Shown here: positions 4,095 through 47,968 of the stretch, piece after piece | How the letters are laid out: the number at the start of each line of letters is the position of its first letter | Position numbering within the stretch: the first letter of the stretch is position 1 | NCBI GenBank assembly: GCA_019358935.1 | Contig: JAHHIK010000063.1 | Span: 1-48,000, forward strand | DNA length: 48,000 bases | Reading direction: 5' to 3' | Source: Tolypothrix carrinoi HA7290-LM1 | GTDB lineage: Bacteria; Cyanobacteriota; Cyanobacteriia; Cyanobacteriales; Nostocaceae | Position numbers and translations under genes: made by a program | The notes under the pieces: generated by a model | Database searches by the model: none | Seen by the model: only the letters and a program-made list of their open reading frames with translations | Told to the model about the DNA's origin: nothing

Positions 4095-5129
4095 ATGCAA
4101 ACATTTGAATCTCAAAATAAATTTGCAGAAGAAATTTATTCAAAAATCAATAACGGGATTTTAGGAACCATAGGTAATACACCATTGATCGAGCTAAAAA
4201 ATGTCTTCAAAGATGCTCACTTTCAAGTTTTTGCCAAATTGGAAATGTTTAATCCAGGAGGTAGCATCAAAGACCGTTCAGCCATAAATATGCTCAAAAA
4301 TGCGTTATTGAGAGGAGATATTAAAGCCAGAAGTACAATTATTGAATCTAGCTCGGGAAATTTAGGTGTAGGGTTGGCACAAGTATGCGCTTTTCTCAAC
4401 TTACGTTTTATCTGTGTAGTTGATCCCAAAACAACCCAACAAAATATTAACATTCTTAAAGCATATGGGGCAGAGGTTGATCTTGTCACAAAACCAGATT
4501 CAATTACAGGTGATTTCTTACCAACTCGCATTAACCGAGTGAAATCATTATTGGCTTCTATTCCTAATAGTTATTGGTGTAATCAATATGCTAACTTAGA
4601 TAACGCGATCGCTCATTATCAGACAATGAATGAAATTGTAACAGCCCTCAACGGAAAACTTGACTATTTATTCTGTGCTACTAGTAGCTGTGGCACACTC
4701 CGTGGCTGCTCTGAATATGTTAGAAGTAACAATCTCAACACAAAAGTTATTGCTGTTGATGCAAAGGGAAGTGTTATATTCGGTGACAAAAGAGGTAAAC
4801 GGCTTTTACCAGGTCATGGTGCAGCACGAGTCCCAGAATTGTTCGAGCCTGGACTAGAGGATGAATGCGTGCATATATCTGATTTAGAATGTGTTATGGG
4901 CTGTCGTCATTTGCTTTGTTGGGAAGCGATATTAGCTGGAGGCTCATCAGGAGGAATTATAACCGCAATTGCAAAAAAAACAGCAGAAATTCCAAAAGGT
5001 GCTACTTGCGTTGCTATTCTATGCGATCGCGGTGAGCGCTACCTGGACACAGTTTATTCAGACACTTGGGTCGAAGAACACTTTGGTAAGTTGAATGGAA
5101 CTATATTCAGCCCAGTAGCTAACACTTAA
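4095..5129 (+). CDS. sbnA: PLP-dependent cysteine-synthase-fold enzyme, SbnA-like (2,3-diaminopropionate biosynthesis, step 1)
   Basis: 344 aa. GNTPLIEL, FNPGGSIKDRSA (PLP lysine) and ESSSGNLG are hallmarks of the CysK/CBS fold. The gene sits directly upstream of an ornithine-cyclodeaminase-family gene, as in sbnA-sbnB and sulG-sulH pairs. Confidence 0.75.
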   Translation: MQTFESQNKFAEEIYSKINNGILGTIGNTPLIELKNVFKDAHFQVFAKLEMFNPGGSIKDRSAINMLKNALLRGDIKARSTIIESSSGNLGVGLAQVCAFLNLRFICVVDPKTTQQNINILKAYGAEVDLVTKPDSITGDFLPTRINRVKSLLASIPNSYWCNQYANLDNAIAHYQTMNEIVTALNGKLDYLFCATSSCGTLRGCSEYVRSNNLNTKVIAVDAKGSVIFGDKRGKRLLPGHGAARVPELFEPGLEDECVHISDLECVMGCRHLLCWEAILAGGSSGGIITAIAKKTAEIPKGATCVAILCDRGERYLDTVYSDTWVEEHFGKLNGTIFSPVANT

Positions 5130-5178
5130 CCTAGTAATAAGACTTTAATAATAATTATTAAAAAGGAAGGTATTTACT

Positions 5179-6213
5179 ATAAACTACGATAACGTACTTC
5201 TTCTAAAAGGTGATGAGATTCTTACTCTCTTCAACAAACGCGAACAGGAAATCCTGGAAATTGTCAAATTAGCATATCAAATACATTCGCAAGGTGATAG
5301 TAGCTTGCCTCATTCTAGTTTCTTGCGTTTCCCTAATAAGCAGAAGGAGCGAATTATTGCCTTGCCAGCTTACCTGGGTGGTGAGTTAAATACGGCAGGC
5401 ATTAAATGGATTGCTTCTTTCCCAGCCAATTTAGCTATGGGTATAGAGAGAGCCTCAGCTGTTTTAATCATAAATTCCACAGAAACCGGACGCCCACAAG
5501 CTATTATGGAAGGCTCTGTTATTAGTGCCAAACGCACTGCTGCTAGTGCGGCAATTGCTGCTCATTATCTACGAGGCAAGCAATCATTAACTACAGTTGG
5601 TCTGATTGGCTGTGGTTTGATTAATTTTGAGACTGTTCGGTTTCTTTTAAGCACTCGCCCAGAAATAGAAACTCTGTTCATTTATGATTTGCTCAGAGAA
5701 AAAGCCGAGCAATTCAAACGTAAATGTCAGCAAATAACTGATAAATTGGAAATTGTAATTTTTGAAGAAGCAAATGCTGTTTTGAAAAATGCCTCTCTAA
5801 TCTCCCTGGCAACAACCGCAAGCCAACCCCATATATTCGATATTTCCTTCTTCCAACAGAACAGCATAATTTTGCACACTTCTCTACGAGACTTGTCACC
5901 TGAGATAATTTTATCTGCTGATAACATTGTTGATGACATAGACCATGTTTGCCGCGCTCAAACATCTATTCATCTTACTGAACAACAAACGGGGAACCGA
6001 AAATTTATCAGATGTACCCTTGGTGATATACTCAATGGCATTGCCCCCCCTCGGCAAGACAACAGTAAAATTGCTGTATTCAGTCCTTTTGGGCTGGGCA
6101 TACTCGACCTCGCTTTAGGTCAGTTAGCCTACAAATTAGCGTCGGAGCAAAACTTAGGAACTGCGATCGCATCATTTTTCCCAGTTTCTTGGTTACAGCG
6201 CGAAGAATATTAA
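5179..6213 (+). CDS. sbnB: Ornithine cyclodeaminase/mu-crystallin-family NAD enzyme, SbnB-like (2,3-diaminopropionate biosynthesis, step 2); start codon uncertain
   Basis: Family features are AKRTAASAAIAAHYL and the Rossmann motif GLIGCGLINFE. The ORF track starts at TTG 5305, but the in-frame upstream translation INYDNVLLLKGDEILTLFNKREQEILEIVKLAYQIHSQGDSS looks like the genuine N-terminus. The last in-frame stop is at 5152-5154, and an AAGGAAGG SD at 5163-5170 lies 8 nt before ATA 5179. No ATG, GTG or TTG is available in that stretch. Confidence 0.7.
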   Translation: MNYDNVLLLKGDEILTLFNKREQEILEIVKLAYQIHSQGDSSLPHSSFLRFPNKQKERIIALPAYLGGELNTAGIKWIASFPANLAMGIERASAVLIINSTETGRPQAIMEGSVISAKRTAASAAIAAHYLRGKQSLTTVGLIGCGLINFETVRFLLSTRPEIETLFIYDLLREKAEQFKRKCQQITDKLEIVIFEEANAVLKNASLISLATTASQPHIFDISFFQQNSIILHTSLRDLSPEIILSADNIVDDIDHVCRAQTSIHLTEQQTGNRKFIRCTLGDILNGIAPPRQDNSKIAVFSPFGLGILDLALGQLAYKLASEQNLGTAIASFFPVSWLQREEY

Positions 6214-6274
6214 GTCACTAAGTACCAACATACATATATCATATATACATAACATTTAAATCATATGGATTTAT

Positions 6275-8128
6275 ATGGATCTCATTCGTCTTCTTCTAAG
6301 TTCCTCTTGGAAAATTCTTATCCTTGCAGCTATTGTTAGCTTACTAAGTGGAGTAACTACTACAGGTATAATAGCTGTCATTAATAATACCCAAGTAAAT
6401 TCTTCAACCCTAAATGCATCACTTATTTGGGGATTTGTTGGTCTGTGTTTATTCCGTTTTATTAGTAGCGTTATTTCTCAAACCCTATTAATTTCTCTTT
6501 CACAAAAGGCGATTTTAAATCTAAGAATGCTTTTAAGTCAAAGAATTCTTGCATCTCCTTTTTATCATATAGAAAGTCTTGGCAATAATCGTATTCTGGC
6601 AACCCTGACTGATGATGTTCAATCAATCTCTAACACAGCTCTCATTCTGCCTAGAATATGTGTGAATATTGTTATTGTAGTAAGTTGCTTGCTTTATTTA
6701 TGTTGGCTTTCTCCAACGCTGTTTCTTATTCTGGTTCTTTTTATAGTAATAGGAATAACCAGTTATCAGCTAACAGCTAATAAGGCAACAACATTTTTGC
6801 TTAGGGGTCGGGAGCAGCAAGACAAATTGTTTAGTTATTTTCGCGGTATTACCGACGGAACAAAAGAGCTGATGCTTCACTACAAAAAGCGCGAAACATT
6901 TTTCAAAGATCTTCAAGCAACAGCAGAATCTTACGAACATGAAAATGTAGTTGGTATGAGTATCTTTGCACTGGCTGCTAGCTGGGCACAAATCATGTTT
7001 TTTGTAGCGATTGGTATCGTTATTTTCATACTACCTGCTCTGAAGAATACTCAAAATCAGGTTTTATCAGGCTACGTACTGACAATTACTTACCTAATTG
7101 TGCCTTTAGATGCTATTATTAATTCGCTCTCAACATTTAGCAAGGCGTTTGTTGCTCTCGATAAAATTAAATCATTAGATTTGAAATTAACAACTCCAGC
7201 TAAAGAGATTGGTTTTGAAGATAATTTGAAATTATTAACTTCTGCTCAAGAAACTGAAGAAGATAATTTGAAATTATTAACTTCTGCTCAAGAAACTGAA
7301 GAAGATAATTTGAAATTATTAACTTCTGCTCAAGAAAGTAGAGAAGATAATTTGAAATTATTAACTCCAGAACTAGAAAATAAAGAAGATAATTTGAAAT
7401 TATTAACTTTTGATCAAGAAAGTAGAGAAGATAATTCGTTAATTTTCTCAGACTCAGAACTTATCTGTCAGCGTCTAGAGTTTTTAGATGTCACTTATAA
7501 ATATCAGAGTGAAGATAAATATCTCTTTACCGTAGGACCTATTAATTTAACGTTTTCTGCTGGAGAAATTGTTTTTTTAATTGGAGGTAACGGTAGTGGA
7601 AAATCTACTTTTATTAAGCTGTTAACTGGTCTGTATATTCCGGACACAGGAAAGATTATTATCAACGGAAAACTAATCACTGCTGAAGAACGCGAGTGGT
7701 ATCGACAGCATTTTTCAGTTGTGTTCTTCGATTTTTATCTGTTTGATAATTTATTAAATTCAGGCAAAACTATCTCTGACGAGCAAATTTACGATTATCT
7801 CGTAAAACTTCAACTTAACAACAAAGTTAAAGTGAAGAATGGTATACTTTCAACCACAGCCTTATCTCAAGGTCAACGGAAACGTCTAGCTCTACTAACT
7901 GCATATTTAGAAGACCGAGCTATCTACGTATTTGATGAATGGGCTTCCGATCAAGATCCTATATTCAAGAATATTTTCTATACGCAAATATTACCAGATT
8001 TAAAAAGTCAAGGCAAACTTGTAATCGCTGTTACCCATGACGACCAGTATTATCACTTATCAGATCGGATTATCAAGTTGAATAATGGAATTGTCGAATA
8101 TGACAAGCTTCAGCAACAGCCTTTGTAG
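6275..8128 (+). CDS. Fused permease/ATPase ABC exporter, cyclic-peptide exporter type (SyrD/PvdE-like)
   Basis: 617 aa. The N-terminal TMD has about 6 helices. The NBD carries Walker A GGNGSGKST (about 7583-7609), signature LSQGQRKRLAL and Walker B IYVFDEWASDQD. The gene is embedded in an NRPS cluster. The TMD-NBD linker carries the tandem repeat listed separately. Confidence 0.8.
   Translation: MDLIRLLLSSSWKILILAAIVSLLSGVTTTGIIAVINNTQVNSSTLNASLIWGFVGLCLFRFISSVISQTLLISLSQKAILNLRMLLSQRILASPFYHIESLGNNRILATLTDDVQSISNTALILPRICVNIVIVVSCLLYLCWLSPTLFLILVLFIVIGITSYQLTANKATTFLLRGREQQDKLFSYFRGITDGTKELMLHYKKRETFFKDLQATAESYEHENVVGMSIFALAASWAQIMFFVAIGIVIFILPALKNTQNQVLSGYVLTITYLIVPLDAIINSLSTFSKAFVALDKIKSLDLKLTTPAKEIGFEDNLKLLTSAQETEEDNLKLLTSAQETEEDNLKLLTSAQESREDNLKLLTPELENKEDNLKLLTFDQESREDNSLIFSDSELICQRLEFLDVTYKYQSEDKYLFTVGPINLTFSAGEIVFLIGGNGSGKSTFIKLLTGLYIPDTGKIIINGKLITAEEREWYRQHFSVVFFDFYLFDNLLNSGKTISDEQIYDYLVKLQLNNKVKVKNGILSTTALSQGQRKRLALLTAYLEDRAIYVFDEWASDQDPIFKNIFYTQILPDLKSQGKLVIAVTHDDQYYHLSDRIIKLNNGIVEYDKLQQQPL
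7217..7435 (+). repeat. In-frame 42-bp tandem repeat (5.2 copies) inside the ABC exporter linker
   Basis: The unit gaagataatttgaaattattaacttctgctcaagaaactgaa encodes EDNLKLLTSAQETE. The copies lie at 7217, 7259, 7301, 7343 and 7385, with a partial copy at 7427. The first two are identical and the later ones diverge progressively at their 3' halves. Confidence 0.95.
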
Positions 8129-8172
8129 CGTTACCCACTTAAACTGAACTCATTTTATTAACAGCAAATTTT

Positions 8173-8997
8173 ATGAACCTCTCTGAAAACCAGATTCAAA
8201 AGTACGAGGAAGATGGATTATTATTCTTCCCAGAGTATTTTTCAGATAGAGAAGTCAGCATTCTACAGAGGGAACTTTCACGGTTGCCTGAGGATGCTCC
8301 GGGGAAGGTTGTAGAAAACGACAATAAAACGGTGCGTGCTCTTCATGGTTGTCACGAGTACAGCGAAATCTTTAAGAGCTTGGCTCAACACCCCCGTCTT
8401 TTGAAACCAGTTCAGCAGATTCTCAAAGAATTGGTCTATCTTTACCAGTTTAAAATCAACATGAAAGCTGCTTTTACAGGTGATGTCTGGCCCTGGCATC
8501 AAGATTACACATTTTGGTATAAAGAAGATGGTTTACCAACCTCAGAAGTAATAAATGTCAGTATTTTTTTAGATGAAGTCAATCACTTCAATAGTCCGTT
8601 ATATTTCATCCCAGGCTCACACAAAGAAGGACTGATTGATGTTGAGGCACAAATGGCGAACAATAGCAACAAAGGTACAGATTGGCAAGCTAATTTCAGC
8701 GCTAATCTCAAGTACTGTCTTAGTCACACAAATGTTGCTCAAATGGTCGCAAAAAAAGGTATCGTAGCCCCAGTTGGTCCTAAAGGGTCTGTTATATTCT
8801 TTCATGGCAATATAGCCCATGCCTCAGTTTCTAATATTTCTCCTTATAATCGCAGGCAGATTATTATTACCTATAGCAGTGTAAAAAATATTCCAATTTC
8901 TAAGAGTCAGCCTCGACCAGCATTCTTAGTTTGCCGAGATTACGTTCCATTGCAACCAAAAAAAGATGATGTTCTTCTGCAAGTCAGTATGGTATAG
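8173..8997 (+). CDS. Fe(II)/2-oxoglutarate dioxygenase, PhyH superfamily, ectoine-hydroxylase (EctD)-like
   Basis: 274 aa. VWPWHQDYTFWYKEDGLP resembles the EctD signature F-x-WHSDFETWH-x-EDG-M/L-P. The HxD (HQD) and distal His (FFHGNIAHAS) form a 2-His-1-carboxylate facial triad. Confidence 0.7.
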   Translation: MNLSENQIQKYEEDGLLFFPEYFSDREVSILQRELSRLPEDAPGKVVENDNKTVRALHGCHEYSEIFKSLAQHPRLLKPVQQILKELVYLYQFKINMKAAFTGDVWPWHQDYTFWYKEDGLPTSEVINVSIFLDEVNHFNSPLYFIPGSHKEGLIDVEAQMANNSNKGTDWQANFSANLKYCLSHTNVAQMVAKKGIVAPVGPKGSVIFFHGNIAHASVSNISPYNRRQIIITYSSVKNIPISKSQPRPAFLVCRDYVPLQPKKDDVLLQVSMV

Positions 8998-9081: not shown

Positions 9082-12000
9082 ATGTTTACTCCAGCATCAG
9101 AAGAAGTTTTCATATTTCCCTTATCTTTTGCTCAGGAACGGCTTTGGTTTCTTAACCAGTTAGACCCAAATAACACCTCTTACAATATTAAAAGTGCTTT
9201 GCAGCTAGATGGTCAACTGAATATCACTGCTTTAGAAAGAGCAATACAGGAGATACAGCAACGTCACGAAGTTTTGCGAACTACCTTTAAAGTTATTGAT
9301 GGAACGCCATTTCAAGTCATTGCTTCTGCCAGCACCCTGACTTTACCCGTGCTTGAATTAAAGGGGATGGCAAAAGAAGAGAAGTTTGTTAGCGTACAAC
9401 GCCACATAAGCGAAGAAGCCAGAAAACCTTTTAACCTCTCCACAGACTTTTTATTGAGAATTAGTCTATTAAAGCTAGCAGAACACTCTCATGTTTTACA
9501 AATAACAGTACATCATATAATTGCAGACGTTTGGTCGATAGGAATTTTCATTCAAGAGTTGACAGCACTTTACGAAGCTTTTTGTCAAGGAAAACTTTCT
9601 CCCCTACCAGAGTTACCTATCCAGTATGCTGACTTCGCCGAATGGCAACGGCAGTGGCTCAGTGGAGAAGTGCTAGAGTCCCAGATTAACTACTGGAAGG
9701 AACAGTTGGCAGGAGCGCCACCTCTGCTGGAGTTACCCACTGACCGACCTCGCCCTCCCGTGCAAACCTTTAGCGGAAGTACTGAGAGGTTCCAACTTAG
9801 TGCTTCACTGACCCAACAGATCCGCAGCTTAAGTCAGCAGGTAGGAACAACTATGTTTATGACGCTGCTAGCAGCGTTTGCTCTGTTGCTGTCACGCTAC
9901 AGTCATCAGAAGGACATTATTGTTGGCTCCTCTATTGCCAACCGTAACCGTCAAGATATAGAAACACTTATTGGCTTTTTTGTCAATACCTTGGTGCTGC
10001 GTATTGATTTACAGAGTAATCCTACCTTTTGGGAGTTGTTGCAGCAGGTGCGGCAGACGACTCTAGATGCTTATGACCAACAAGACTTACCCTTTGAACA
10101 GCTGGTCGAAGCTCTGCAACCAGAGCGGAGTCTGAGTCACCAGCCCCTGTTTCAGGTGATGTTTGAGATGCAGAATGTGCCGATGGGAACTCTGGAACTG
10201 TCTGAGTTGACCTTAACGCCACTGGAACCAGAACACGCGATCGCCAAGTTTGATTTGATGTTGACAATGCAGGAGGTAGAGTCGGGACTGTTGGGAACTT
10301 GGGAGTACAACAGCGACTTGTTTGATGCTGCCACTATTCGCCGGATGATAGGGCATTTCCAGACTTTGCTGGCGGCGATTGTTGGCAACCCCAAGTGTCC
10401 GGTGATGCAGCTACCTCTGCTCACAGACGGGGAACAACAGCAGTTACTGGTGGCGTGGAACGACACTCAGAAAGATTATCCTCAAGACAAGTGTATCCAT
10501 CAGTTGTTTGAAATCCAGGTGGAACAAACCCCAGAGGCGGTGGCTGTTGTATGTGAAGGCAAACACCTCACCTATCGAGAACTGAACACCCAAGCTAATG
10601 GTTTGGCACGGCGGTTGGTGGAGCATAAAGTTGGATCGGAAACTATCGTAGTCTTGCTAGCTGAACGGAGTATCGAGTTCTTGACTGGCATGATGGCAGT
10701 CTTTAAGGCAGGTGGAGCTTATCTGCCCCTCGATCCCCAGTATCCTCAGCAACGCATCTGTGAGGTCTTGCAGCAAAGTCAAGCACCCTTGGTGTTGGTA
10801 TCTAACAAGTTCGAGCTTGTTCTCTCTCAAGCTATAGAAAGCTTATCAAAACAAACCAGACCAAAAATATTGCGCTTAGAAGAATTATGCTCGCAGTCCA
10901 AAGAAAACCTAACAGTAGACAGTAAGCCAAATCATCTAGCTTATATAATTTATACATCAGGTTCGACGGGTGTACCTAAAGGGGCAATGGTCGAACATCA
11001 GGGAATGGTAAATCATTTGTATGCTAAAATCCAAGACCTGCAACTTACCGCTCTCGACCGGATAGCACAAAATGCCCGTCAAAGTTTCGATATCTCCGTT
11101 TGGCAATTACTAGCCGCTCTGTTGGTGGGGGGACGAGTTTACATTTTCAATGATGAGGTTGCTTGCGACCCAAGTCAACTGCTTTCTCAAGTAGAGCAAC
11201 AGGAAATCACCATTTTGGAGATGGTGCCATCCTTATTACGAATGGCAATCGAGAATCTCTTGAGTAACCAAAACCAACGCCTTCAATTATCGAAGTTACG
11301 ATGGTTAATTCTCACGGGAGAAGCTTTACCGCCCCAGTTGTGTCGTCAGTGGTTTGATTGCTATCCGACCATTCCGATGCTGAACGCCTATGGTCCGACT
11401 GAATGTTCTGATGATGTCACCCATTACTTTATTTCCCAACCGCCTACGACCGAGGTGTTAAATATGCCCATTGGTCGTGCAGTAGCAAATACAAGATTAT
11501 ACGTGTTAGATTCTCAGTTGCAACCACTACCAATAGGAGTAACGGGGGAATTATACGTTGGCGGAGACGGCGTGGGACGAGGGTATCTCAATAATCCACA
11601 ACGGACGGCAGAAGTCTTCATCAGCGATCCCTTCCTACAAAAGCCCGGAGCGCGGTTATACCGTACCGGAGATCGAGTTCGCTACCTGCTTGATGGCAAT
11701 ATTGAGTTTTTTGGTCGTATTGACCATCAGGTTAAGGTGCGGGGCTTCCGCATTGAACTAGGAGAAATAGAAGCAGTTTTGACCGAATGCCCACAGGTAC
11801 GGGAGACAACGGTCATAGTCTGGGAAGACCATTTTGGGAATAAACTTTTGGTCGCCTATGTCGTTCCTCACCAAGAGCAACCTACTATCAGTACATTGCG
11901 GGGCTTTCTCAGAAAGAAGTTGCCGGAATACATGGTACCAACAGTATTTGTGTTCTTAGAGGCTCTACCCTTGACCCCCAACGGCAAGCTCGATCGCCGT

Positions 12001-24740: not shown

Positions 24741-24783
24741 ACAAACATATGTAAAATAAGCTTTGATATGAGAAAAATAAAGT

Positions 24784-35812: not shown

Positions 35813-35824
35813 TCCTATGCGTAA
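35732..35824 (+). pseudogene. Truncated duplicate of the N-terminal docking domain of the 36672 NRPS (30-aa ORF)
   Basis: MNQKSVVKLLSQLRQLNIQVIAEGEKL is identical to residues 1-27 of the 36672 product. It then diverges (SYA, stop at 35822-35824) where the hydroxylase cassette begins. Its ATG overlaps the upstream stop (ATGA). Confidence 0.8.
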
Positions 35825-36611: not shown

Positions 36612-36640
36612 ACTTAGTTCAATGGGACAAGAGTTACAAG

Positions 36641-36752
36641 TTGCAGAAATAGAGCTTGAAGAGGAAGAAATATGAATCAAAAAAGCGTGGTGAAGTTGCT
36701 TTCTCAACTGCGTCAACTGAATATTCAAGTTATAGCTGAAGGAGAAAAGTTA
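36641..36752 (+). repeat. Direct repeat copy 2 (112 bp, identical to 35701-35812), covering a relic NRPS C-terminal tail and the true start of the 36672 NRPS
   Basis: See copy 1. The relic micro-ORF at 36622-36675 encodes MGQELQVAEIELEEEEI, which mirrors the ..VGQEVVAEIELEEEEI C-terminus of the 28308 product. Confidence 0.95.
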
Positions 36753-39700: not shown

Positions 39701-41453
39701 GTTGCCGTTAACCCCGAACGGCAAGGTGGATCGTAAAGCCTTGCCTGCTCCCGAAGCAGATTTTGTGCGTGGATTTGTACCTCCCCAAACCCCCATTGAA
39801 CAGACCTTAGCTGCTATTTGGCAGGAAGTCCTCGAAGTGTCACAAGTTGGCATTGATGATAATTTCTTTGCGATCGGAGGAGATTCCATCCTCAGTATCC
39901 AAGTGGTTTCTCAGGCTAAACAAGTCGGCATTCAAATCACTCCCAAACAGCTATTCCAATATCAAACCCTTGCCGAACTTGCTGCTGTTGCTAACACAAC
40001 CACTGCCGTGCTTGCTCAACAAAAGGTAGTCACAGGAGAGGTTCCCCTAACTCCGATTCAAAAGTGGTTTTTCGAGCAAAATTGGTCTAACCCGCATCAT
40101 TTTAATCAGTCGGTACTGCTGCAACTGCCCAATAACTTCAATCCCTCATTTTTGTCCAAAGCAGTTAGCCAGTTACTAGAACATCACGATGCTTTGCGTC
40201 TTTTGTTTATTTCCACTGAGGGAAACTGGCGGCAAATCAACAAAGGACTTGAAGACAGCGTGCCGTTTGAGCAAGTGGATTTATCTCAAGTTCCCCAGTC
40301 CGAACAACTTACAGCTCTTGAGGAAATTGCCGCCCGACTACAAGCTAGCTTAAACCTAAATGTTGGTCCGTTGATGCGAGTCGTGCTGTTTAACTTAGGT
40401 AGCAACTGTTGCCAGTGTTTACTAATTGCGATTCATCACCTCGCAGTCGATGGTGTCTCCTGGCGAATACTGCTTGAAGATTTGTTTGCTGTCTATCAGC
40501 AGCTAGAACGAGGAGAAAGCATTCAACTGCAAAAGAAAACCACCGCCTTTCAAGATTGGGCGATACGTCTGAGTCATTATGCACAATCAAACATTTTACA
40601 GCAACAGTTAAATTACTGGCTGAACCTGCCTTGGTCGAAAGTAGCACCACTGCCAGTGGATGAGCCTGCTAACAAACAATATAATACCGTGGCGAATGCG
40701 GCTGAAGTATCAGTTGCTTTGGATAAAAAACAAACTGATGCCCTCTTGCAGGAGGTCTGTGTTGCCTACAACACCCAAATAAATGATGTTCTGTTGACTG
40801 CTTTAGCGCAGAGTTTGAGGAAGTGGACTGGGAAATCTGCGTTTCTCATTGATTTGGAGGGACATGGACGAGAAGACTTATTTGAAGAGGTAGACTTGTC
40901 CCGAACAGTCGGCTGGTTTACGAGTCTTTTTCCAGTGCTGTTGCACTTAGAAAGTACAACTGACCTTGGGGAAACTCTCAAGGCTGTTAAAGAACAATTG
41001 CGAGGAATTCCTCTTCGGGGTATTGGCTACGGTATTCTACGTTACCTCAGTCAAGAGAGTGAAATTTGCATTCAACTTCAGGCTTTGCCCCAAGCAGATA
41101 TTTGCTTTAACTACTTTGGTCAATTTGCACAGTCAGGATTTCTTGGGGTAAGTTGGCAATTTGATGCTGTGTCTAAGCGCTTTGACCGCAGTAGTGAGGG
41201 TGGGCGTCCTTATTTGTTGGATGTTAACGCGATGGTGGTTGAAGGAAAGTTGCAAATCACTTGGACTTACTGTTGTCAAGTTCATCACAGTGCTACAGTG
41301 AAGCTGCTGGCACACAATTATATCGAGGAACTGCAAAAACTGATTGACCATTGTCTGTCTCCTGAGGCTAAGGGTTACACTCCCTCAGATTTTCCGGAAG
41401 CAGGGTTAAGCCAAGAACAACTTGACACTCTACTGGCGGAGGTAGGATTTTGA
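36672..41453 (+). CDS. NRPS, one module with epimerase: docking-C-A(Ala)-T-E (D-Ala)
   Basis: 1593 aa. The TubC_N-like docking domain is MNQKSVVKLLSQLRQLNIQVIAEGEKLRYQAPKGVLTPELRQEIAEYKAQILAFL. The C domain is HHIICDYWS (37296-). The A domain is YTSGSTGKPKG (38721-) with code DLFNNALTYK (the Ala code). The T domain is GGDSI, typical before an E domain (Ser 39885-39887). The E domain is HHLAVDGVSW (40434-). Confidence 0.95.
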   Translation: MNQKSVVKLLSQLRQLNIQVIAEGEKLRYQAPKGVLTPELRQEIAEYKAQILAFLSTVNRNERSVLSAIEIIPRNENLPLSFGQERLWFLDQLQGSTAYNEHGGIRITGKLDVTAIQSAFAEVLRRHEVLRTTFPLVNGKPTQAIAPQVNAEVALLDWQHLTESTRESQLQHYAQQQAQTLFDLASGPLVCATLVHLAAEEWVLLIVMHHIICDYWSVNIFIQELSALYQSFTQGQPSPLPELVIQYADYASWQRHRLNGLLETQLSYWKKHLADAPSVLQLPSDRPRPSVQSYRGEAQTFILDQSLTKKLQQLSQTFGTTLFMTLLTAFSTLLYRYSNQEDIVIGSPIANRNRAEIESLIGFIANVLVLRVRFENNPSFAQLLEQVREVTLQGYAHQDVPFEQVVEALQPKRSLSYSPLYQVMFVLQNVPKEPLVLPGVTLKPFTPKTQTAKFDLTLMIEESEQGLIGTWEYNTDLFNKETIARMCEHFQTLLSAIVTHPEQRVSQLPLLSEQQRYQLLVEWNQTAADYPQNKCIHQLFFEQVERTPDAVAVVCEEQIITYKELNNRANQLARYLQDLGIRPEVRVGVCIERSVEMVVGLLGILKAGGAYVPLDPTYPQERLRYMLDDSGALLLLTQQKLLDLLPPHSKGAVCLDTDWQSIAAQSTDNFVSDATAKNLAYVIYTSGSTGKPKGVAIEHHSTVTLLNWAQDIFTPKQLAGVLASTSICFDLSVFELFLPLSVGGKVILAENGLHLPTITAEAEVTLINTVPSVVAELLRTNSIPDKVRTVNLAGEPLQNQLVQQLYQQVKIEKVFNLYGPSEDTTYSTFALCLQEEKQAIASNSITIGRAIANTQIYILDRHLQPLPIGVPGEIYIGGAGLARCYFNHPELTAQKFIPNPFGNQLSSRLYKTGDLARYLPNANIQFLGRIDNQVKIRGFRIELGEIETALTAHPQVLEAIVIVREDTPSDKRLVAYIVAQNSPTSSELRFFLKQKLPDYMLPKYFVILERLPLTPNGKVDRKALPAPEADFVRGFVPPQTPIEQTLAAIWQEVLEVSQVGIDDNFFAIGGDSILSIQVVSQAKQVGIQITPKQLFQYQTLAELAAVANTTTAVLAQQKVVTGEVPLTPIQKWFFEQNWSNPHHFNQSVLLQLPNNFNPSFLSKAVSQLLEHHDALRLLFISTEGNWRQINKGLEDSVPFEQVDLSQVPQSEQLTALEEIAARLQASLNLNVGPLMRVVLFNLGSNCCQCLLIAIHHLAVDGVSWRILLEDLFAVYQQLERGESIQLQKKTTAFQDWAIRLSHYAQSNILQQQLNYWLNLPWSKVAPLPVDEPANKQYNTVANAAEVSVALDKKQTDALLQEVCVAYNTQINDVLLTALAQSLRKWTGKSAFLIDLEGHGREDLFEEVDLSRTVGWFTSLFPVLLHLESTTDLGETLKAVKEQLRGIPLRGIGYGILRYLSQESEICIQLQALPQADICFNYFGQFAQSGFLGVSWQFDAVSKRFDRSSEGGRPYLLDVNAMVVEGKLQITWTYCCQVHHSATVKLLAHNYIEELQKLIDHCLSPEAKGYTPSDFPEAGLSQEQLDTLLAEVGF

Positions 41454-44400
41454 ATCAAAAAGCAGAAAAAAGCAAGAACATCGAATCAATTTATCCCCTC
41501 TCGCCAATGCAGCAGGGAATGTTGTTTCACACTGTTTACGCTCCCAACTCAGGAGTCTATGTTGAGCAAGTGCTTTTCACCATCTGCGGTGAACTTAATA
41601 TAGCTGCCTTTAAGCAGGCATGGCAGAAATTGGTAGAACGCCATCCGGTTTTGCGGACTCTGTTTGTTTGGGAAAAGCAGCAGGTGCCCTTGCAGGTGGT
41701 ACGCAAACAAGTGGAGTTACCTTGGAATTATTGCGATTGGCGAGAACTGTCTCCAAAGGCGCAACAGCAGCGCTTGGAGGAATTTTTGCACGCAGACCGA
41801 TATCAAGGCTTTGTACTCAACCAAGCACCCCTAATGCGCTTCACCCTCATGGAGCTTGCCTCGCAACGCTATCAGTTCCTCTGGAGCCATCACCACATCA
41901 TAATGGATGGTTGGTGTCTCCCCATTCTCCTCAAAGAAGTCTTAACTTTTTACGAAGCCTACAACCGAGGTGAAAGCTGCTACATACCTGCTTTGAGTCC
42001 CTACCGAGATTACATTGCTTGGCTGCAAAAGCAAGACGTATCTGAGGCAGAAGCATTTTGGCGACGAACCCTTAAGGGATTTAGAACGCCCACGCCCCTA
42101 GTAGTGGATCGACCATCTCTTCAAAGCTTAGAGCAGTATCCCACTTATCACAAGCAGGAACTGAGTTTATCCTCCGAAGTAACTCAAAAGCTTCAATCTT
42201 TGGCACGACAGCATTCTATCACCTTGGCTACTCTAGTGCAAGCTGCTTGGGCAATGCTTTTGAGTCGCTATAGTGGAGAGTCAGAAGTTTTGTTTGGGGT
42301 GACTGTTTCGGGTCGTTCTGGCAATTTATCAGGCATCGAAGAGATGGTCGGACTGTTTATCAACACTTTACCCTTGCGGGTTTCAGTCCCCAGAGAAAAG
42401 CCTGTGTTGCAATTGTTACAAGAAGTGCAACAGATGCTCTTAGAATTGCAGGAGTATGCTTACATCCCACTAGCAGAAGTTCAACGGCTGAGTGAGGTTA
42501 AAGCTCCTTTGGCTCTGTTTGAGAGCATTTTGGTGTTTGAGAACTATCCGGTGGATAAATCTTTGCGGCAGTCAAACCACTCCTTCAAAGTCACTGAGGT
42601 GGAAGTTTTTGAACAAACAAACTATCCCCTGACTGTGTTGGTTTTTGCTGAAGAAAAGTTGTTAATTAAAATAAGCTACGATCGCAGCCGTTTTGAAGCC
42701 GATACCATTACTCGCATGGGTGGACACTTGCAGACGTTGTTAGAAGCGATCGCTTCTAATCCAAACCAGCAAGTGGAAAAACTGCCATTGTTGACAAAAG
42801 CACAGCAGCACCAGTTGTTATTAGAGTGGAACCAGACAGCAGCAAACTACCCTCCAGATAAGTGTCTCCATGAATTGTTCTTTGAGCAGTCTTTGAGCAC
42901 TCCCAACGCGGTAGCGGTGGAGTTTGAAAACTCTCAGTTGACCTATCAGCAGTTAAATGAGCGAGCCAATCAGTTAGCCCATTATCTGCAATCGCTTGGG
43001 GTCGAACCTGAGGTATTAGTGGGGTTGTGCGTTGAACGCTCCTTGGAGATGGCGATCGCGGTCTTGGCTATCCTCAAAGCTGGTGGAGCGTATGTGCCGC
43101 TCGACCCCGCTTATCCCCAAGAACGGTTGGCTTTTATGCTGGAGGATACTCGCTCAAAAGTTTTGCTGACTCAATCTCGATTGCGATCGCACCTCCCCGA
43201 ATCAGATCGTGTTTTCTGTATAGATGAACAATGGGAAGTTATTGCCCAACAACCCTCCACTAATCCAGCTAGCCCCGTCCAGCCAAGCAATCTTCTCTAC
43301 GTCATTTACACCAGTGGCTCTACTGGGCGACCCAAAGGCATTACACTATCTCACCAAGCCTTGGGCAACTTGATTTACTGGCATCTCGAAACCATGAAGC
43401 AGGGAGTTGGGGTTCTCCAATTTGCATCGTTGAGCTTTGATGCCAGCTTCCACGAAATGTTTGCTGCCTGGTGTTCTGGTGGAACATTATACATGATTCC
43501 GGAAAGCCTGCGGTTGGATGTGGAAAAACTCGTTGATTTTTTAGCTGAAAAACCGATACAGAAAGTCATTTTGCCAGTAGCCCTTTGGCAGCAGATAGCC
43601 CAAGTTTATGGGCAGCAAGCCGATTTGTTCCGTAATATTACTGAGGTAATAATTACAGGTGAGCAGTTGCAAATTACCCAGCCTATTATTGATTTGTTTA
43701 AGCAGTTAAACCACTGCCGCCTGCATAATCATTATGGTCCCTCAGAGACTCACGTAGTTACTGCATTTACATTTAACGACTCACCAGATACTTGGCGTAT
43801 TTATCCTCCAATAGGCAAACCAATAGCCAACACGCAAATCTATATTTTAGACGAGCATTGGCAACCCGTTCCCATCGGCGTTCCAGGGTTCTTATTTATT
43901 GGGGGGGCAAATCTGGCACGGGGTTATCTCAATCGTCCGGACTTAACAGCACAGAAGTTTGTTCCCAATCCCTTTGGTAAAGGGCTGCTTTACCAAACCG
44001 GAGACTTGGCGCGTTATCTGCCGGATGGCAACATTGAATTTATCGGGCGGGTAGACGACCAGGTTAAGGTTCGCGGCTTCCGGGTTGAATTGGGTGAAGT
44101 GGAAGCGGTGTTAAACAAACACCCACAGTTAAGCCAAGCGGTGGTAACAGTGCAAGGAAACGCAGCCAATGAAAAGCGACTGGTCGGCTATGTAGTTCCA
44201 AAGTCCGAGACAGTAACAACCGAGCAGTTGCGCTCTTTTCTGTTGCAGAAGTTACCGGAGTACATGATTCCATCAGCGTTTGTTACTCTAGAATCCCTGC
44301 CCTTAACTCCCAATCAGAAGATCGATCGCCGTGCTTTACCTATACCGGATTTGCAGCCAAGTCGCTCAGATGACTATGCACTGCCCCGCAATCCAAAAGA

Positions 44401-47400
44401 AGAAATTATTGCCAACATCTTCGCCTCGGTTCTGAAACTTGAGCACCTAGGTGTTGATGATAACTTCTTTGAACTGGGTGGGCATTCTCTACTCGCCACT
44501 CAAGTTGTATCGAGGCTGCGAGAAGCCTTTCAAATCGAGATCCCCTTGCGTACTCTATTTGAAGCACCCACCGTTGCCGAACTCGCTCAAGCTATCTGGG
44601 CACTGCGTCAGACTGCTTCGGGATTAGTAATTCCTCGACTTAAGCCTGTATCAAAAAATACGAATTTTTTGGCGCTATCTTGGGCGCAAGAACGGCTGTG
44701 GTTTTTAGACCAACTAGAATCGGACAGTGCGACCTACAATATGCCAGCAGCGCTTGAGATATCTGGAGAGCTAAATGTAAAAGCCCTAGAGCAAGCCTTA
44801 ACGGAAATTATACAACGCCACTCGGTTCTGCGTACAACTTTTGCCACGGTCAACGGAACTCCAATGCAGGCGATCGCCCCTGCTGTGGCAGTAACTATTC
44901 CCGTTGTAGATTTGCGATCGCAAAGCGTGCGCGAAGCGCAATCGATCAACAAAAACTCGCGGAAAGATCGCGTAAAATCCGAAGCAACCCAAGAAGCTCA
45001 ACAACCCTTTAATCTAGCGAGTGGTTCCCTAATCCGCTTTAAACTTTTGCAACTGGCACAATCTCATGTGCTGCTTGTAACCATGCATCATATAGTTTTC
45101 GATGCTTGGTCAATCAGCATTTTTGTTCGAGAACTGATTGCTCTCTATGAAGCAGCCTTGCATCAACAGCCTTGTGTGTTGCCCGCCCTACCAATTCAGT
45201 ATACTGATTTCGCGTGCTGGCAGCGACAATGGCTTCAAGGAGGAGTGTTAGAAACGCAACTGAACTATTGGAAGCAGCAACTTGCTGGCAATTTACCAGT
45301 ACTACAGCTACCTATTGATTACCCCCATTCACTAACTCAGAATTATCAAGGAGCACAGCAAGTTCTACGTTTGCCCAAGTCTCTGACCGCAGCAGTTAAA
45401 ACTTTGAGCCGCCAAGAGGGAGTCACTGTGTTTATGACCTTGTTGGCAGCATTCAAAGTATTACTGTCCCGCCACACTGGACAGGAAGATATTATTGTCG
45501 GTTCACCGATTGCGGGTCGTAACCACCTTGGAACTGAAGAGCTAATTGGCTTTTTTCTGAACACTCTACCCCTACGCACTAACTTGTCAGGAAATCCCAA
45601 CTTCCGGCAGTTGTTAAGCAAAGTGCGTGATGTGACACTATCAGCTTACAACCACCAAGACATTCCCTTTGAAAAGTTGGTTGAAGAACTGCGACCAGAA
45701 CGCTCCTTGAGTCGGCATCCAGTGTTTGATGTGATGTTTAACATGATCAATACACCGGAGGTAGCACTAGAAATTCCCGGCTTGACTTTTGAGCCGTTGG
45801 AGCTAACACAGCAGTCGTCAAAATTCTGGATGACAGTATTCGTTCAAGAGGTGGCAGAGGAACTTAACATTAAGCTGGTGTATCGACAGAACCTGTTCTC
45901 ATCCGAACGTATGACTGCTTTTCTGGAACAGTTTGAGCATTTAGTGCAACAAATCGTGGCTGAACCTGAGCGTTCGATTCAATCTTATTCTCTAGTTACA
46001 CCACAGTCGCGCTCTTTGTTGCCAGATGCGAATGCTGGGCTTGATGAACCTGACTACGAACCAGTGACTGCCCTGTTTGCTGCTTGGGTTGAGAAAGCAC
46101 CTCGGCAAACGGCTATCCGTCAGAACGATCGCATGTGGACTTACCAGGAATTGTCCCAAAGCGCCCATACTATTGCACAGGTTCTCTTAAGTTCCGGTGT
46201 GCAACAGGGAGATGTAGTAGCTGTGTGCGGTGCGAAGAGTTTCGGACTGATTGCCAGTATGCTTGGGGTATTCTTCAGCGGCGCTGTCTTGCTGATGCTT
46301 GATTTGAACCTTCCAACTCATCGCCAGCAACTGATGCTCCAGGAGGCTCAAGCCAAGTATCTCTTGAATGTGGGCATTAAGTCAAAACAAGCACATTTGA
46401 CAGAAAGCTCCTTAGAAATTATTCATGTTGATCCTGAGACTGCAACAGCGATTGAAAAGACAACAAACTGCTGTTTGCCAACGCTGAATGGAGGCGATCG
46501 CGCTTACATCTTCTTCACCTCTGGTAGCACAGGGACACCGAAAGGGGTGTTGGGGACTCACAAAGGTATTTCTCATTTTCTCGACTGGCAACGCCAAACT
46601 TTTGAGATTAGTACTTTTGACCGAGTTGCCCAATTAACTAGTCTCACTTTTGACGCTGTTCTCAGAGATGTTTTTCTGCCTTTGACCAGTGGAGCAACAC
46701 TCTGTTTGCCGACTGTGGACAATGACTTAGGGTCAGATCGGGTGTTAAGCTGGTTGGAAACTGAGCAAATCACTGTAGTTCACACAGTTCCGGCACTGGC
46801 ACAGTCTTGGCTAACACAAGTACCATTAGGAATTCACTTAACGAAGTTGCGCTGGATTTTCTTCTCCGGAGAACCTTTAACTCAGACGCTGGTTCGTCAA
46901 TGGCGACAGACTTTTCCAGAAGCAGGGGAAATAATTAATCTCTACGGAGCAACAGAGACTACAATGGTCAAATGCTTCTACAGAGTGCCTAGTGAGATTC
47001 CATGTGGGGTGATGCCAGCAGGTTGGGCGCTTCCCCAAACGCAAGCGCTGGTATTAAATTCAACTAACCAGTTGTGTGGAATCGGGGAAATCGGGGAAAT
47101 TATTATACGTACCCCCTTCCGCACTTTAGGCTATATTAATGCGATCGCCGAACAACAGCAACGGTTTTTGCCCAATCCAGACGGCAACGATCCAGAGGAT
47201 TTGTTGTACTATACTGGCGACAAGGGGCGCTACCGTCCGGATGGAGCGGTTGAAGTTTTGGGTCGAAACGACGACCAAATTAAGATTAGAGGAATACGTG
47301 TTCAACCAGCAGAGATTGAGACGGTATTGAACCAGCACCCAGCGGTGGCAGAAAGTGTAGTGATTGCCACAGACGAGACGCCAGGGGACAAACGCTTAGT

Positions 47401-47968
47401 TGCCTATGTAGTTGCCACGAATCAAACATTTGCCAAAAGCGAGGCAAGCTACTTTCTCAAACAGCACCTACCGGAGTATCTGGTGCCATCAGTCTTTGTT
47501 GTGTTAGACGCTTTGCCACTGACTGCTAATGGTAAAGTGAACCGTCGTGCTTTGCCTGCCCCATCTTTTGAAGTAGGTGAGAGTGCTAGCAATGTTAAAC
47601 CTCGAACCCCAACTGAGGAACTGATTGTCAGTATCTTTGCCTCTGTTTTGAAAGTTCAGCACTTAGGTGTTGATAATAACTTCTTTGAGGTGGGTGGACA
47701 TTCTCTACTCGCCACTCAAGTTGTTTCTCGTCTGCGGGAGGCACTCAAAGTAAATCTGCCTCTACGAACTTTATTTGAGGCACCAACTCCTGCTGAACTA
47801 GCCGTAGCCATTGAGAAAATTAAAGTGACTGGAGGCGCTGAGATTGACACACCCAAAATCACAAAGATTTCTCGGGAACGGCATCGAGTTCAAGTCTCGT
47901 CTCAAGAGGAGTTAACACTTCCTGATGCTGTGAGGCAGGAGATTTTCAAACCAGAAAGTAAACATTAA
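41450..47968 (+). CDS. NRPS, two modules: C(DCL-type)-A-T-C-A-T plus a C-terminal tail of about 55 aa
   Basis: 2172 aa. The TTG start overlaps the upstream TGA (TTGA). C1 begins IYPLSPMQQGMLFH, fitting a donor-D-specific C domain after an E domain, and has HHIIMDGWC (41891-). A1 is YTSGSTGRPKG (43307-) with code DAH(I/V)ITHVVK (unassigned), and the T1 Ser is at 44486-44488. C2 is HHIVFDAWS (45086-). A2 is FFTSGSTGTPKG (46511-) with code DARHFSLMVK, and the T2 Ser is at 47702-47704. No TE, R or C domain follows the last T. Confidence 0.95.
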   Translation: MNQKAEKSKNIESIYPLSPMQQGMLFHTVYAPNSGVYVEQVLFTICGELNIAAFKQAWQKLVERHPVLRTLFVWEKQQVPLQVVRKQVELPWNYCDWRELSPKAQQQRLEEFLHADRYQGFVLNQAPLMRFTLMELASQRYQFLWSHHHIIMDGWCLPILLKEVLTFYEAYNRGESCYIPALSPYRDYIAWLQKQDVSEAEAFWRRTLKGFRTPTPLVVDRPSLQSLEQYPTYHKQELSLSSEVTQKLQSLARQHSITLATLVQAAWAMLLSRYSGESEVLFGVTVSGRSGNLSGIEEMVGLFINTLPLRVSVPREKPVLQLLQEVQQMLLELQEYAYIPLAEVQRLSEVKAPLALFESILVFENYPVDKSLRQSNHSFKVTEVEVFEQTNYPLTVLVFAEEKLLIKISYDRSRFEADTITRMGGHLQTLLEAIASNPNQQVEKLPLLTKAQQHQLLLEWNQTAANYPPDKCLHELFFEQSLSTPNAVAVEFENSQLTYQQLNERANQLAHYLQSLGVEPEVLVGLCVERSLEMAIAVLAILKAGGAYVPLDPAYPQERLAFMLEDTRSKVLLTQSRLRSHLPESDRVFCIDEQWEVIAQQPSTNPASPVQPSNLLYVIYTSGSTGRPKGITLSHQALGNLIYWHLETMKQGVGVLQFASLSFDASFHEMFAAWCSGGTLYMIPESLRLDVEKLVDFLAEKPIQKVILPVALWQQIAQVYGQQADLFRNITEVIITGEQLQITQPIIDLFKQLNHCRLHNHYGPSETHVVTAFTFNDSPDTWRIYPPIGKPIANTQIYILDEHWQPVPIGVPGFLFIGGANLARGYLNRPDLTAQKFVPNPFGKGLLYQTGDLARYLPDGNIEFIGRVDDQVKVRGFRVELGEVEAVLNKHPQLSQAVVTVQGNAANEKRLVGYVVPKSETVTTEQLRSFLLQKLPEYMIPSAFVTLESLPLTPNQKIDRRALPIPDLQPSRSDDYALPRNPKEEIIANIFASVLKLEHLGVDDNFFELGGHSLLATQVVSRLREAFQIEIPLRTLFEAPTVAELAQAIWALRQTASGLVIPRLKPVSKNTNFLALSWAQERLWFLDQLESDSATYNMPAALEISGELNVKALEQALTEIIQRHSVLRTTFATVNGTPMQAIAPAVAVTIPVVDLRSQSVREAQSINKNSRKDRVKSEATQEAQQPFNLASGSLIRFKLLQLAQSHVLLVTMHHIVFDAWSISIFVRELIALYEAALHQQPCVLPALPIQYTDFACWQRQWLQGGVLETQLNYWKQQLAGNLPVLQLPIDYPHSLTQNYQGAQQVLRLPKSLTAAVKTLSRQEGVTVFMTLLAAFKVLLSRHTGQEDIIVGSPIAGRNHLGTEELIGFFLNTLPLRTNLSGNPNFRQLLSKVRDVTLSAYNHQDIPFEKLVEELRPERSLSRHPVFDVMFNMINTPEVALEIPGLTFEPLELTQQSSKFWMTVFVQEVAEELNIKLVYRQNLFSSERMTAFLEQFEHLVQQIVAEPERSIQSYSLVTPQSRSLLPDANAGLDEPDYEPVTALFAAWVEKAPRQTAIRQNDRMWTYQELSQSAHTIAQVLLSSGVQQGDVVAVCGAKSFGLIASMLGVFFSGAVLLMLDLNLPTHRQQLMLQEAQAKYLLNVGIKSKQAHLTESSLEIIHVDPETATAIEKTTNCCLPTLNGGDRAYIFFTSGSTGTPKGVLGTHKGISHFLDWQRQTFEISTFDRVAQLTSLTFDAVLRDVFLPLTSGATLCLPTVDNDLGSDRVLSWLETEQITVVHTVPALAQSWLTQVPLGIHLTKLRWIFFSGEPLTQTLVRQWRQTFPEAGEIINLYGATETTMVKCFYRVPSEIPCGVMPAGWALPQTQALVLNSTNQLCGIGEIGEIIIRTPFRTLGYINAIAEQQQRFLPNPDGNDPEDLLYYTGDKGRYRPDGAVEVLGRNDDQIKIRGIRVQPAEIETVLNQHPAVAESVVIATDETPGDKRLVAYVVATNQTFAKSEASYFLKQHLPEYLVPSVFVVLDALPLTANGKVNRRALPAPSFEVGESASNVKPRTPTEELIVSIFASVLKVQHLGVDNNFFEVGGHSLLATQVVSRLREALKVNLPLRTLFEAPTPAELAVAIEKIKVTGGAEIDTPKITKISRERHRVQVSSQEELTLPDAVRQEIFKPESKH

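Follow-up and report, generated by a model that had tools for sequence, protein, structure and literature searches.

The described gene cluster that ranked first in our search of plasmid proteins is that of cyanochelin B (ccs), on plasmid 2 of Leptolyngbya sp. NIES-3755 (AP017310.1). It contains a fatty acyl-AMP ligase (FAAL), and its product carries a 2,3-dihydroxy-2-methylacyl chain on a methyl-thiazoline; the 2,3-dihydroxylated acyl has been attributed to a KS-AT-Ox-cMT-KR module (PMC12628792). In this study, we analysed a stretch of 48,000 nucleotides of Tolypothrix carrinoi HA7290-LM1 (metagenome-assembled genome GCA_019358935.1, contig JAHHIK010000063.1, positions 1 to 48,000), hereafter called the window, which holds a hybrid polyketide synthase (PKS) and nonribosomal peptide synthetase (NRPS) cluster. 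One of its modules is of a type known from epothilone EpoB and bleomycin, in which heterocyclisation (Cy), adenylation (A) with an embedded oxidase (Ox) and thiolation (T) domains form a thiazole in the order Cy-A(Ox)-T.

We think it likely that the region is a real, intact and uncharacterised lipopeptide cluster, and its predicted product is a fatty-acid-capped octapeptide containing a thiazole. No characterised cluster of the same architecture was found in the literature searched or in PLSDB, and megablast against PLSDB gave no near-identical cluster. An earlier model-made note on the window, the sequence-only reading, had not recognised the combination of genes. For the architecture as a whole this stood, but the PKS-monooxygenase part and the Cy-A(Cys) module proved to be homologous to those of cyanochelin B. 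The cluster follows standard assembly-line logic, and the current understanding of assembly-line biosynthesis is unchallenged by it.

The assembly line and its order

We found 11 co-directional and tightly packed open reading frames (ORFs) on the forward strand at 4095-47968, as the sequence-only reading had placed them (Table 1; genes are named below by their start positions). Six of the 11 are megasynthase genes (products of 1175-3476 aa), and none of the six is interrupted. Together they encode a single FAAL-ACP loader, a single PKS module for malonate extension, eight NRPS modules and a single thioesterase (TE) with a cysteine nucleophile. The domain content was taken from Pfam and the A-domain codes from alignment to GrsA-PheA. 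Each of the eight A domains has its T domain, and the HHxxxD motif is present throughout the condensation (C), Cy and epimerisation (E) domains except in the first C domain (HHxxxE).

The codes are DVWHISLIDK for Ser, DLYNLSLIW- for Cys, DLFNNALTYK for Ala, and DAHIITHVTK, DARHFSLMVK and DIWEITADDK for three residues that we call X, Z and B. The Z code occurs in two domains that are 87% identical to each other, and its reading carries an H/T register ambiguity at 'VHT'. The last module has the code DILALGLIWK. The Gly module of cyanochelin B carries the identical code, and thus the last residue should be Gly. The Ox of the 28308 product is a Nitroreductase-family insert in the Cys A domain. 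With a Cy domain containing DxxxxD, a Cys code and a nitroreductase-family FMN oxidase placed in the A domain before T, this module has the standard arrangement of the EpoB/bleomycin type. The thiazole module, the D-Ala and the count of eight residues in the sequence-only reading agree with these domains and codes. Its codes were also reproduced, except that of X, which it had given with the ending HVVK and which differs at one position.

The TE-containing gene 9082 precedes the FAAL gene 19509, so the terminating synthetase is encoded upstream of the initiating genes, and the same is seen in Plectonema and Brasilonema (see below). Departures of this kind from co-linearity are not rare. The acidic tails DWIEGEI (24784) and EIELEEEEI (28308) face the TubC_N N-termini of 28308 and 36672, which match the TubC_N model with E values of 5.8e-11 and 1.6e-19, respectively. 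In addition, the E domain of 36672 precedes the C domain of 41450, which opens with SPMQQGMLFH and shares only about 30% identity with the cluster's C domains of the LCL clade. Relatives give further evidence. In Plectonema radiosum, the gene after the monooxygenase gene opens with a dock (MILSEFLQEISIKGWKLWSE...) near-identical to the N-terminus of 28308, and the 36672-type and 41450-type proteins are fused in a 3757-aa ORF (contig L002, 233-11506). In Calothrix (L007), the PKS, the monooxygenase, the KR and the first two NRPS modules form one ORF. This ORF ends in Z-T and the basic tail, and after it come a racemase gene and a gene that opens with ...FVFPLSFAQERLWFL, starts with an LCL domain and ends with a TE. 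By its predicted domains, this arrangement is a co-linear version of the junction from 41450 to 9082. The basic tail of the 41450 product is about 60 aa long and is conserved in Plectonema, Brasilonema and Calothrix.

Taken together, the single loader, the single TE, the docks, the pair of E and DCL-type C domains and the fused relatives give good support to the order 19509, 24784, 28308, 36672, 41450, 9082. The sequence-only reading had derived the same order from one FAAL-ACP loader, one Cys-TE and the docking elements, and it is borne out here: Pfam and the GWCMGG motif identify the loader and the TE, the tails, TubC_N matches and SPMQQGMLFH motif are present, and the fusion in Plectonema and the synteny in Calothrix fit.

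In the proposed pathway, the FAAL would activate a fatty acid and load it onto the ACP, and KS-AT(malonyl) would add one C2 unit to the acyl chain. The MupA-type monooxygenase would then hydroxylate C-2 and the KR would reduce C-3, so that, by analogy with cyanochelin B, this module should make a 2,3-dihydroxyacyl thioester. The acidic tail of 24784 would dock on the TubC_N of 28308, which would add Ser and then Cys, the latter being turned into a thiazole by Cy and Ox. The second pair of tail and TubC_N would pass the chain to 36672, where Ala would be added and epimerised to D-Ala. Next, 41450 would accept the chain via its DCL-type C domain and add X and Z. Finally, 9082 would add B, Z and Gly, and the Cys-TE would free the product as a free acid or a macrocycle. 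The predicted product is acyl-Ser-Thz-Ala-X-Z-B-Z-Gly (Thz, thiazole). Domain content, motifs, codes, homologies and synteny are shown directly by the analysis, whereas the way in which the chain is hydroxylated and released, the nature of X, Z and B and the biological role are what we infer from them.

Table 1. Features of the Tolypothrix carrinoi window and of the sequence directly after it
Feature	Position	Strand	Basis
C39-peptidase/ABC-transporter fragment	1505-2281	-	Pfam
Truncated IS605-type TnpB, 255 aa	2859-3626		Pfam
sbnA-like PLP enzyme, first step of L-2,3-diaminopropionate (Dap) synthesis	4095..5129	+	TIGR03945, Pfam PALP
sbnB-like dehydrogenase, second step of Dap synthesis	5305..6213	+	TIGR03944
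ABC exporter, fused TMD-NBD, cyclic-peptide export type	6275..8128	+	TIGR01194
PhyH-family Fe(II)/2-oxoglutarate hydroxylase, GriE/EctD-like	8173..8997	+	Pfam PhyH
Terminating NRPS, modules 6-8: C-A(B)-T-C-A(Z)-T-C-A(Gly)-T-TE	9082..19512	+	Pfam, motifs, codes
TE nucleophile motif GWCMGG, Cys for Ser	18928..18945	+	aa 3283-3288 of 9082 protein
Loading and PKS part 1: FAAL-ACP-KS-AT(malonyl)-DH N-terminal half	19509..24740	+	Pfam, motifs
DH N-terminal hot-dog half, non-canonical HxxxExxxxP	24363..24671	+	Pfam PKS_DH_N, aa 1619-1721
PKS part 2: luciferase-like FMN monooxygenase, DH C-terminal half, KR, ACP, acidic tail DWIEGEI	24784..28311	+	Pfam
NRPS modules 1-2: TubC_N-C-A(Ser)-T-Cy-A(Cys, embedded Ox)-T, acidic tail EIELEEEEI; predicted Ser-thiazole	28308..35735	+	
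AspH/LpxO/OlsC-family Fe(II)/2-oxoglutarate hydroxylase	35817..36611	+	Pfam Asp_Arg_Hydrox
NRPS module 3: TubC_N-C-A(Ala)-T-E, predicted D-Ala	36672..41453	+	Pfam, code, E motif HHLAVDG
NRPS modules 4-5: DCL-type C-A(X)-T-LCL C-A(Z)-T and basic tail (PKITKISRERHRVQV...)	41450..47968	+	Pfam
Amino acid racemase gene, 249 aa, starting 9 nt past the window	48009-48758 (window-equivalent)		contig L164

Relation to cyanochelin B and to sister clusters

The initiating unit is the part of the cluster that it has in common with cyanochelin B. In the 19509 product, the Pfam matches AMP-binding (aa 25-423), AMP-dom_DIP2-like (467-582) and PP-binding (626-691) correspond to an N-terminal FAAL with its carrier. 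The KS has the motifs DTACSS, HGTGT and NIGH, and the AT has the malonyl signature GHSVG..HAFH. The 24784 product reads Bac_luciferase-PS-DH-KR-ACP in Pfam. Its monooxygenase domain matches TIGR04020 (MupA/Atu3671 family) with 485.9 bits, its KR has the catalytic residues (NADPH motif GGLGHLG with S..Y..N), and its ACP has the motif GMDSL. Thus, the KS, AT, KR and ACP motifs are all intact in one elongation module.

The double hot-dog dehydratase (DH) of this module is divided over the boundary between genes 19509 and 24784 (24740/24784; region 24363-26409), and the monooxygenase lies between the two halves. In Calothrix anomala, the same DH and monooxygenase elements are contiguous in a single ORF, so that the split reflects a boundary between genes within a single functional module. 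In the C-terminal half, Glu replaces the catalytic Asp (LLEACHQ), while the catalytic His is kept. The split DH is probably inactive as a dehydratase, and its halves may act as a docking or scaffold element instead. The sequence-only reading had missed this split. In addition, a perfect 18-nt direct duplication (ATGTAGAGACGTTACATG, 1.9 copies) lies at 22912-22946 in the KS-AT linker of 19509; it is in frame and repeats VETLH(D).

Cyanochelin B has the same two-gene split of the initiating unit, with the DH split around the monooxygenase. Its first gene product (BAU16016) is 56% identical to that of 19509 over the full length. For the second (BAU16015), identity to the 24784 product is 51% across the monooxygenase and DH half, and 34% across KR-ACP. 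Furthermore, the Cy-A(Cys) modules of cyanochelin B and 28308 share 55% identity, and both cyanochelin B and the predicted product of the window are lipopeptides with two acidic-type residues.

However, the two clusters differ in many respects. Cyanochelin B has a cMT domain between the monooxygenase/DH half and KR-ACP, which is missing from the window. Its acyl chain is joined directly to the methyl-thiazoline, with neither a Ser module nor an Ox, whereas the window has both. It uses canonical Asp modules and TauD-type hydroxylases, which the window does not have, and it ends in a reductase domain giving ethanolamine, whereas the window cluster ends in a Cys-TE. The genes of cyanochelin B are co-linear with its biosynthesis, unlike those of the window. 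A receptor and iron ABC permeases lie directly upstream of the cyanochelin B genes, whereas the window has only one ABC exporter. Conversely, the Dap genes, the Z-type A domains, the McyF-like racemase, the PhyH-type and AspH-type hydroxylases and the Cys-TE are additional in the window.

The cluster is part of a recombining family that, judged from gene and domain content, also occurs in Plectonema, Brasilonema, Calothrix and Acaryochloris. The sister clusters, in Plectonema radiosum NIES-515, Brasilonema sp. CT11, Calothrix anomala FACHB-343 and Acaryochloris sp. CRU_2_0, are themselves uncharacterised. The unit of FAAL, PKS, monooxygenase and KR is common to them, with 77-83% identity in Plectonema and Brasilonema, and so are the Z modules with the conserved basic tail and the adjoining racemase gene. 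The peptide parts differ. For example, the Plectonema cluster has His(E)-Thr-Z and Thr-?(E)-Z, and the Brasilonema cluster has X-Z and four further modules. Both are without the Ser-thiazole gene, the AspH-like gene and the D-Ala module. The Calothrix cluster is co-linear and ends in a module containing a monooxygenase. In that module, a second luciferase-like monooxygenase is inserted in the last A domain, before T-TE (L007, 17693-18739); this resembles the layout of myxothiazol MtaG, which gives a terminal amide. In Plectonema, the NRPS gene that includes the TE does not read through but falls into two overlapping ORFs of 2612 aa and 1405 aa (L006). The broken TE gene, together with the remnants of a PhyH gene described below, suggests decay or a sequencing frameshift in that cluster. 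These recombinant relatives show module shuffling behind a conserved FAAL-PKS-monooxygenase starter that they share with the cyanochelin siderophores.

Residues X, Z and B and their probable supply genes

The presence of a Dap cassette, of two Fe(II)/2-oxoglutarate oxygenases and of a dedicated exporter had all been read from the sequence earlier, and the profile searches recovered each of them (SbnA and SbnB above equivalog cut-offs; PhyH and Asp_Arg_Hydrox in Pfam; TIGR01194). For residue B, SbnA scores 437.7 bits against the TIGR03945 equivalog (cut-off 349.95), and SbnB scores 391.7 bits against TIGR03944 (cut-off 326.9) over profile positions 39-327. In Rhizonema sp. PD37 (L015), SbnA and SbnB genes that are 73-74% identical lie about 6 kb from an A domain coded DIWELTADDK. 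Meanwhile, neither the B code nor SbnA/B was found in the Plectonema and Brasilonema loci within the sequence compared. Because both enzymes pass their equivalog cut-offs and co-occur with DIWELTADDK in Rhizonema, the most likely identity of B is L-Dap, with SbnA and SbnB as its source.

The sbnB ORF as listed starts with TTG and is without the first ~38 conserved residues of the protein. The missing N-terminus is encoded in frame upstream (5149-5305), behind a Shine-Dalgarno-like AAGGAAGG motif, and the position of the Met in Rhizonema is a non-GTG Val codon in the window. This points to either a non-canonical start codon or an N-terminally truncated enzyme.

The best PDB matches of the PhyH protein are 7E01 and 7DZZ (1.5e-70), both of which carry a generic name only, followed by GriE (5NCH, 4e-60, full-length) and EctD (4e-38). 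Its iron motif is HxD (WHQD), not HxA or HxG, and a halogenase reading was rejected on this ground. Brasilonema, which has X, carries an intact gene, whereas Plectonema, which is without X and has kept two Z modules, carries only two short fragments of it (L006, 1-263 and 7997-8190). Because the gene is intact with X and decayed without X although Z is kept, it tracks X and not Z. A role of the PhyH enzyme as hydroxylase of an Asp-type Z is disfavoured by the same distribution. The enzyme is GriE-like and probably hydroxylates a free amino acid to supply X, for which a Pro-like or aliphatic amino acid, hydroxylated in this way, is the most likely identity. The X code presumably resembles Pro-type codes. 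For comparison, GriE and LdoA are free L-leucine 5-hydroxylases (PMC11611013). No NosE/NosF-type genes for conversion to 4-methylproline are present in the window.

The product of 35817 matches the human AspH catalytic domain (1.4e-32), and it matches the OlsC and LpxO models below their cut-offs. An orthologue with 77% identity occupies the same position on a contig from another sample (L161), between orthologues of 28308 and 36672 that are 72% and 78% identical. The gene is absent from the Plectonema and Brasilonema loci. Candidate substrates of the enzyme are an Asp-type residue of the peptide or the acyl chain.

Residue Z draws on several lines of evidence. The racemase gene directly after the window follows the last NRPS gene in Plectonema, Brasilonema, a Nostocaceae metagenome-assembled genome, Calothrix and Acaryochloris as well, and the cyanobacterial DAR.FSLM subgroup of A domains adjoins a racemase gene in five loci (L002, L003, L004, L007 and L008). 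Among solved structures, the racemase is closest to McyF (6e-46), and other Asp racemases follow at 2e-18. An E domain is lacking from the Z modules. Downstream of Z, the C domains are of the LCL clade and share 65% identity; the one that they resemble most is the C domain after the thiazole, whose donor carbon is achiral. In addition, the Z code has Arg at position 3, which is reminiscent of domains activating the side-chain carboxyl of acidic amino acids (McyB2, McyE and the Aad domain of fungal ACVS). The Z code DARHFSLMVK resembles the McyB2 code, DARHVGIFVK. Because the McyF-like racemase adjoins, the E domain is absent, LCL C domains lie downstream and Arg is at position 3, we hold with moderate confidence that Z is a D-Asp-type residue supplied by the racemase. 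It is possibly iso-linked, and for this linkage the Arg at position 3 and the LCL-clade C domains downstream are suggestive. The combination of a McyF-like racemase with an E-less module is like that of McyF and the second module of McyB in microcystin. However, unlike the supply of D-MeAsp for microcystin, there are no glutamate mutase or MeAsp genes in the cluster.

No solved A domain is close to that of Z, and a full-text literature search for the Stachelhaus codes of Z, B, X, McyB2, McyE and fungal Aad gave no match. The large family to which the Z domains belong, of consensus D[VAP]R[HTS]F[AS]L[LM][AV]K, occurs in many phyla, often as a stand-alone A-T loader. We looked at the contexts of five distant Z-type A-T proteins, which are often PKS/NRPS loaders, and found a racemase with one of the five only: in the distant contig L156, an A-T protein coded DARSFSLMIK is directly followed by an Asp/Glu racemase gene. 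In two distant metagenomic contigs (L154, 8001-10802; L156, 8001-10768), stand-alone Z-type A-T genes, apparently PKS/NRPS loaders in unrelated bacteria, precede a JmjC/cupin-8 gene in one case and the Asp/Glu racemase gene in the other. A metagenome scan with the Plectonema racemase gave no match, and one with the Z-T tail returned distant NRPS only (identity of 54% or less) and no family members. Z would represent a widespread A-domain specificity class, and the recurrent pairing with a McyF-like racemase makes the question of its substrate testable. This is the most promising lead from the present work.

The TE of the Brasilonema orthologue also has Cys (GWCLGG), whereas those of Plectonema and Calothrix have Ser. 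The Cys form is found in the two clusters ending in Gly (window and Brasilonema), and the Ser form in the two with another last residue (Plectonema and Calothrix). Four clusters make no more than a pattern, although one of possible use for TE engineering. A GxCxG nucleophile is found in the TEs ObiF and SulM that form beta-lactones or beta-lactams. Formation of a beta-lactam or beta-lactone by the Cys-TE was rejected here, as the last module carries the Gly code and the predicted Dap lies two residues upstream.

Role of the product and borders of the cluster

If expressed, the cluster would give an undescribed thiazole lipopeptide from a terrestrial Tolypothrix. Its product could be a siderophore of the cyanochelin type, that is, a metal-binding amphiphile, and the cluster a Nostocales branch of the cyanochelin family. 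We regard this as a serious candidate, although its chance is somewhat short of even. Fe(III) would then be bound by two hydroxylated Asp-derived Z residues, hydroxylated by the AspH-like or the PhyH enzyme, together with the dihydroxyacyl/thiazole region. The identities of the initiation genes (56% and 51%) and of the Cy-Cys module (55%) to the cyanochelin B cluster speak for it, and so do the two hydroxylases and the thiazole of the window cluster. Two acidic-type modules are found in every family member, as Z and Z, or as Asp and Z in Calothrix. We also counted for it a module of the Brasilonema variant coded DTEDIGTVVK, which presumably resembles hydroxy-ornithine codes. However, an uptake cassette adjoins both the cyanochelin B and C clusters, whereas no TonB-dependent receptor, periplasmic binding protein or import genes were found in the window or in the flanks of the relatives examined. 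There is also no TauD-family gene or domain and no canonical Asp code (DLTK..H.GK). The Ser module parts the hydroxyacyl from the thiazole, so that the chelating geometry of alpha-hydroxy group and thiazoline proposed for cyanochelin B is lost, and release is by a TE and not by a reductase. The remainder of the probability falls to another bioactive lipopeptide, not a cyanochelin-like metal-binding amphiphile. A wider proposal is that Z-type domains (DAR[H/T]FSLM[V/I]K) with a McyF-like racemase form an uncharacterised class for D-Asp-type residues linked by the side-chain carboxyl, and that the Tolypothrix product would be the first of a new class of amphiphilic metallophores, diverged from the cyanochelins by swapping the beta-OH-Asp modules. 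We consider this unlikely on the present evidence.

The preferred reading, an intact cluster for the octapeptide given above, has other points to face. Three findings weigh against it in addition to those just named for the metal-binding role: the assignments of X, Z and B draw on similar codes and on co-occurring genes; some dehydratase activity is conceivable, as the split DH keeps the catalytic His and has Glu for Asp; and no ATG, GTG or TTG is present in the upstream stretch that encodes the conserved SbnB N-terminus. The lack of a canonical start codon in sbnB could also be taken as a sign that the cluster is a decaying or silent remnant without a product, as could the C39-ABC fragment and truncated TnpB in the upstream flank and, in the Plectonema relative, the frameshifted TE gene and the PhyH remnant. 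Nevertheless, none of the six megasynthase ORFs is interrupted, and their catalytic motifs are intact. The PhyH hydroxylase (in Tolypothrix sp. NIES-4075) and the terminating synthetase each have protein counterparts of more than 90% identity, and an orthologous stretch with 72-78% identity is present in another sample. From the intact ORFs, these proteins and this stretch, we argue for purifying selection, and a remnant seems very improbable to us. A different order or length of the assembly line, through module skipping or iteration, another pairing of the TubC_N docks or a partner acting in trans, would give another product. Two similar pairs of tail and TubC_N are present, and cross-talk between them is conceivable; module gain, loss and recombination are frequent in the relatives, and the source contig stops 1.3 kb past the window. 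However, there is just one loader and one TE, the junctions from 36672 to 41450 and from the PKS to the first NRPS are fixed by fused homologues, and the E/DCL pairing, like the basic tail and the conserved N-terminus of the TE gene, is compatible with the proposed order only. Downstream of the cluster there are a racemase gene and a convergent ORF. We therefore hold a different order to be improbable.

The downstream border was found with a Logan contig (L164) that is 100% identical to window positions 47314-48000 and then reads past the window end; it comes from a sequencing run that also contains an exact copy of the PhyH protein. Beyond the window end, L164 holds the racemase gene and then the convergent ORF, and no further NRPS, TE or loading gene. 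Genes of these kinds just beyond 48000, which by the sequence-only reading would have changed the order and length of the assembly line, are thus not there. The racemase gene belongs to the cluster. The T. carrinoi annotation names its product an amino acid racemase and places it on the source contig, which is 49,308 bp long and ends about 1.3 kb past the window. In Plectonema and Brasilonema, unrelated genes follow the racemase gene. The proteins of the cluster are MBW4570966 (SbnA) to MBW4570975 and onward. An Rfam search of the window gave no match.

The debris of C39/ABC and TnpB at 1505-3626 marks the upstream, or left, edge of the cluster. A TnpB gene is also present just downstream of the Brasilonema cluster (L003, 14438-15391). 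Finally, the exporter scores 446.5 bits against TIGR01194 (cut-off 286.2). It contains a 42-nt tandem repeat (5.2 copies, 90% matches) at 7217-7436, which is in frame and encodes 14-aa units like EDNLKLLTSAQETE in the linker between the membrane and ATPase domains. The protein has 617 aa, and the Brasilonema homologue, with 555 aa, is 62 aa shorter.

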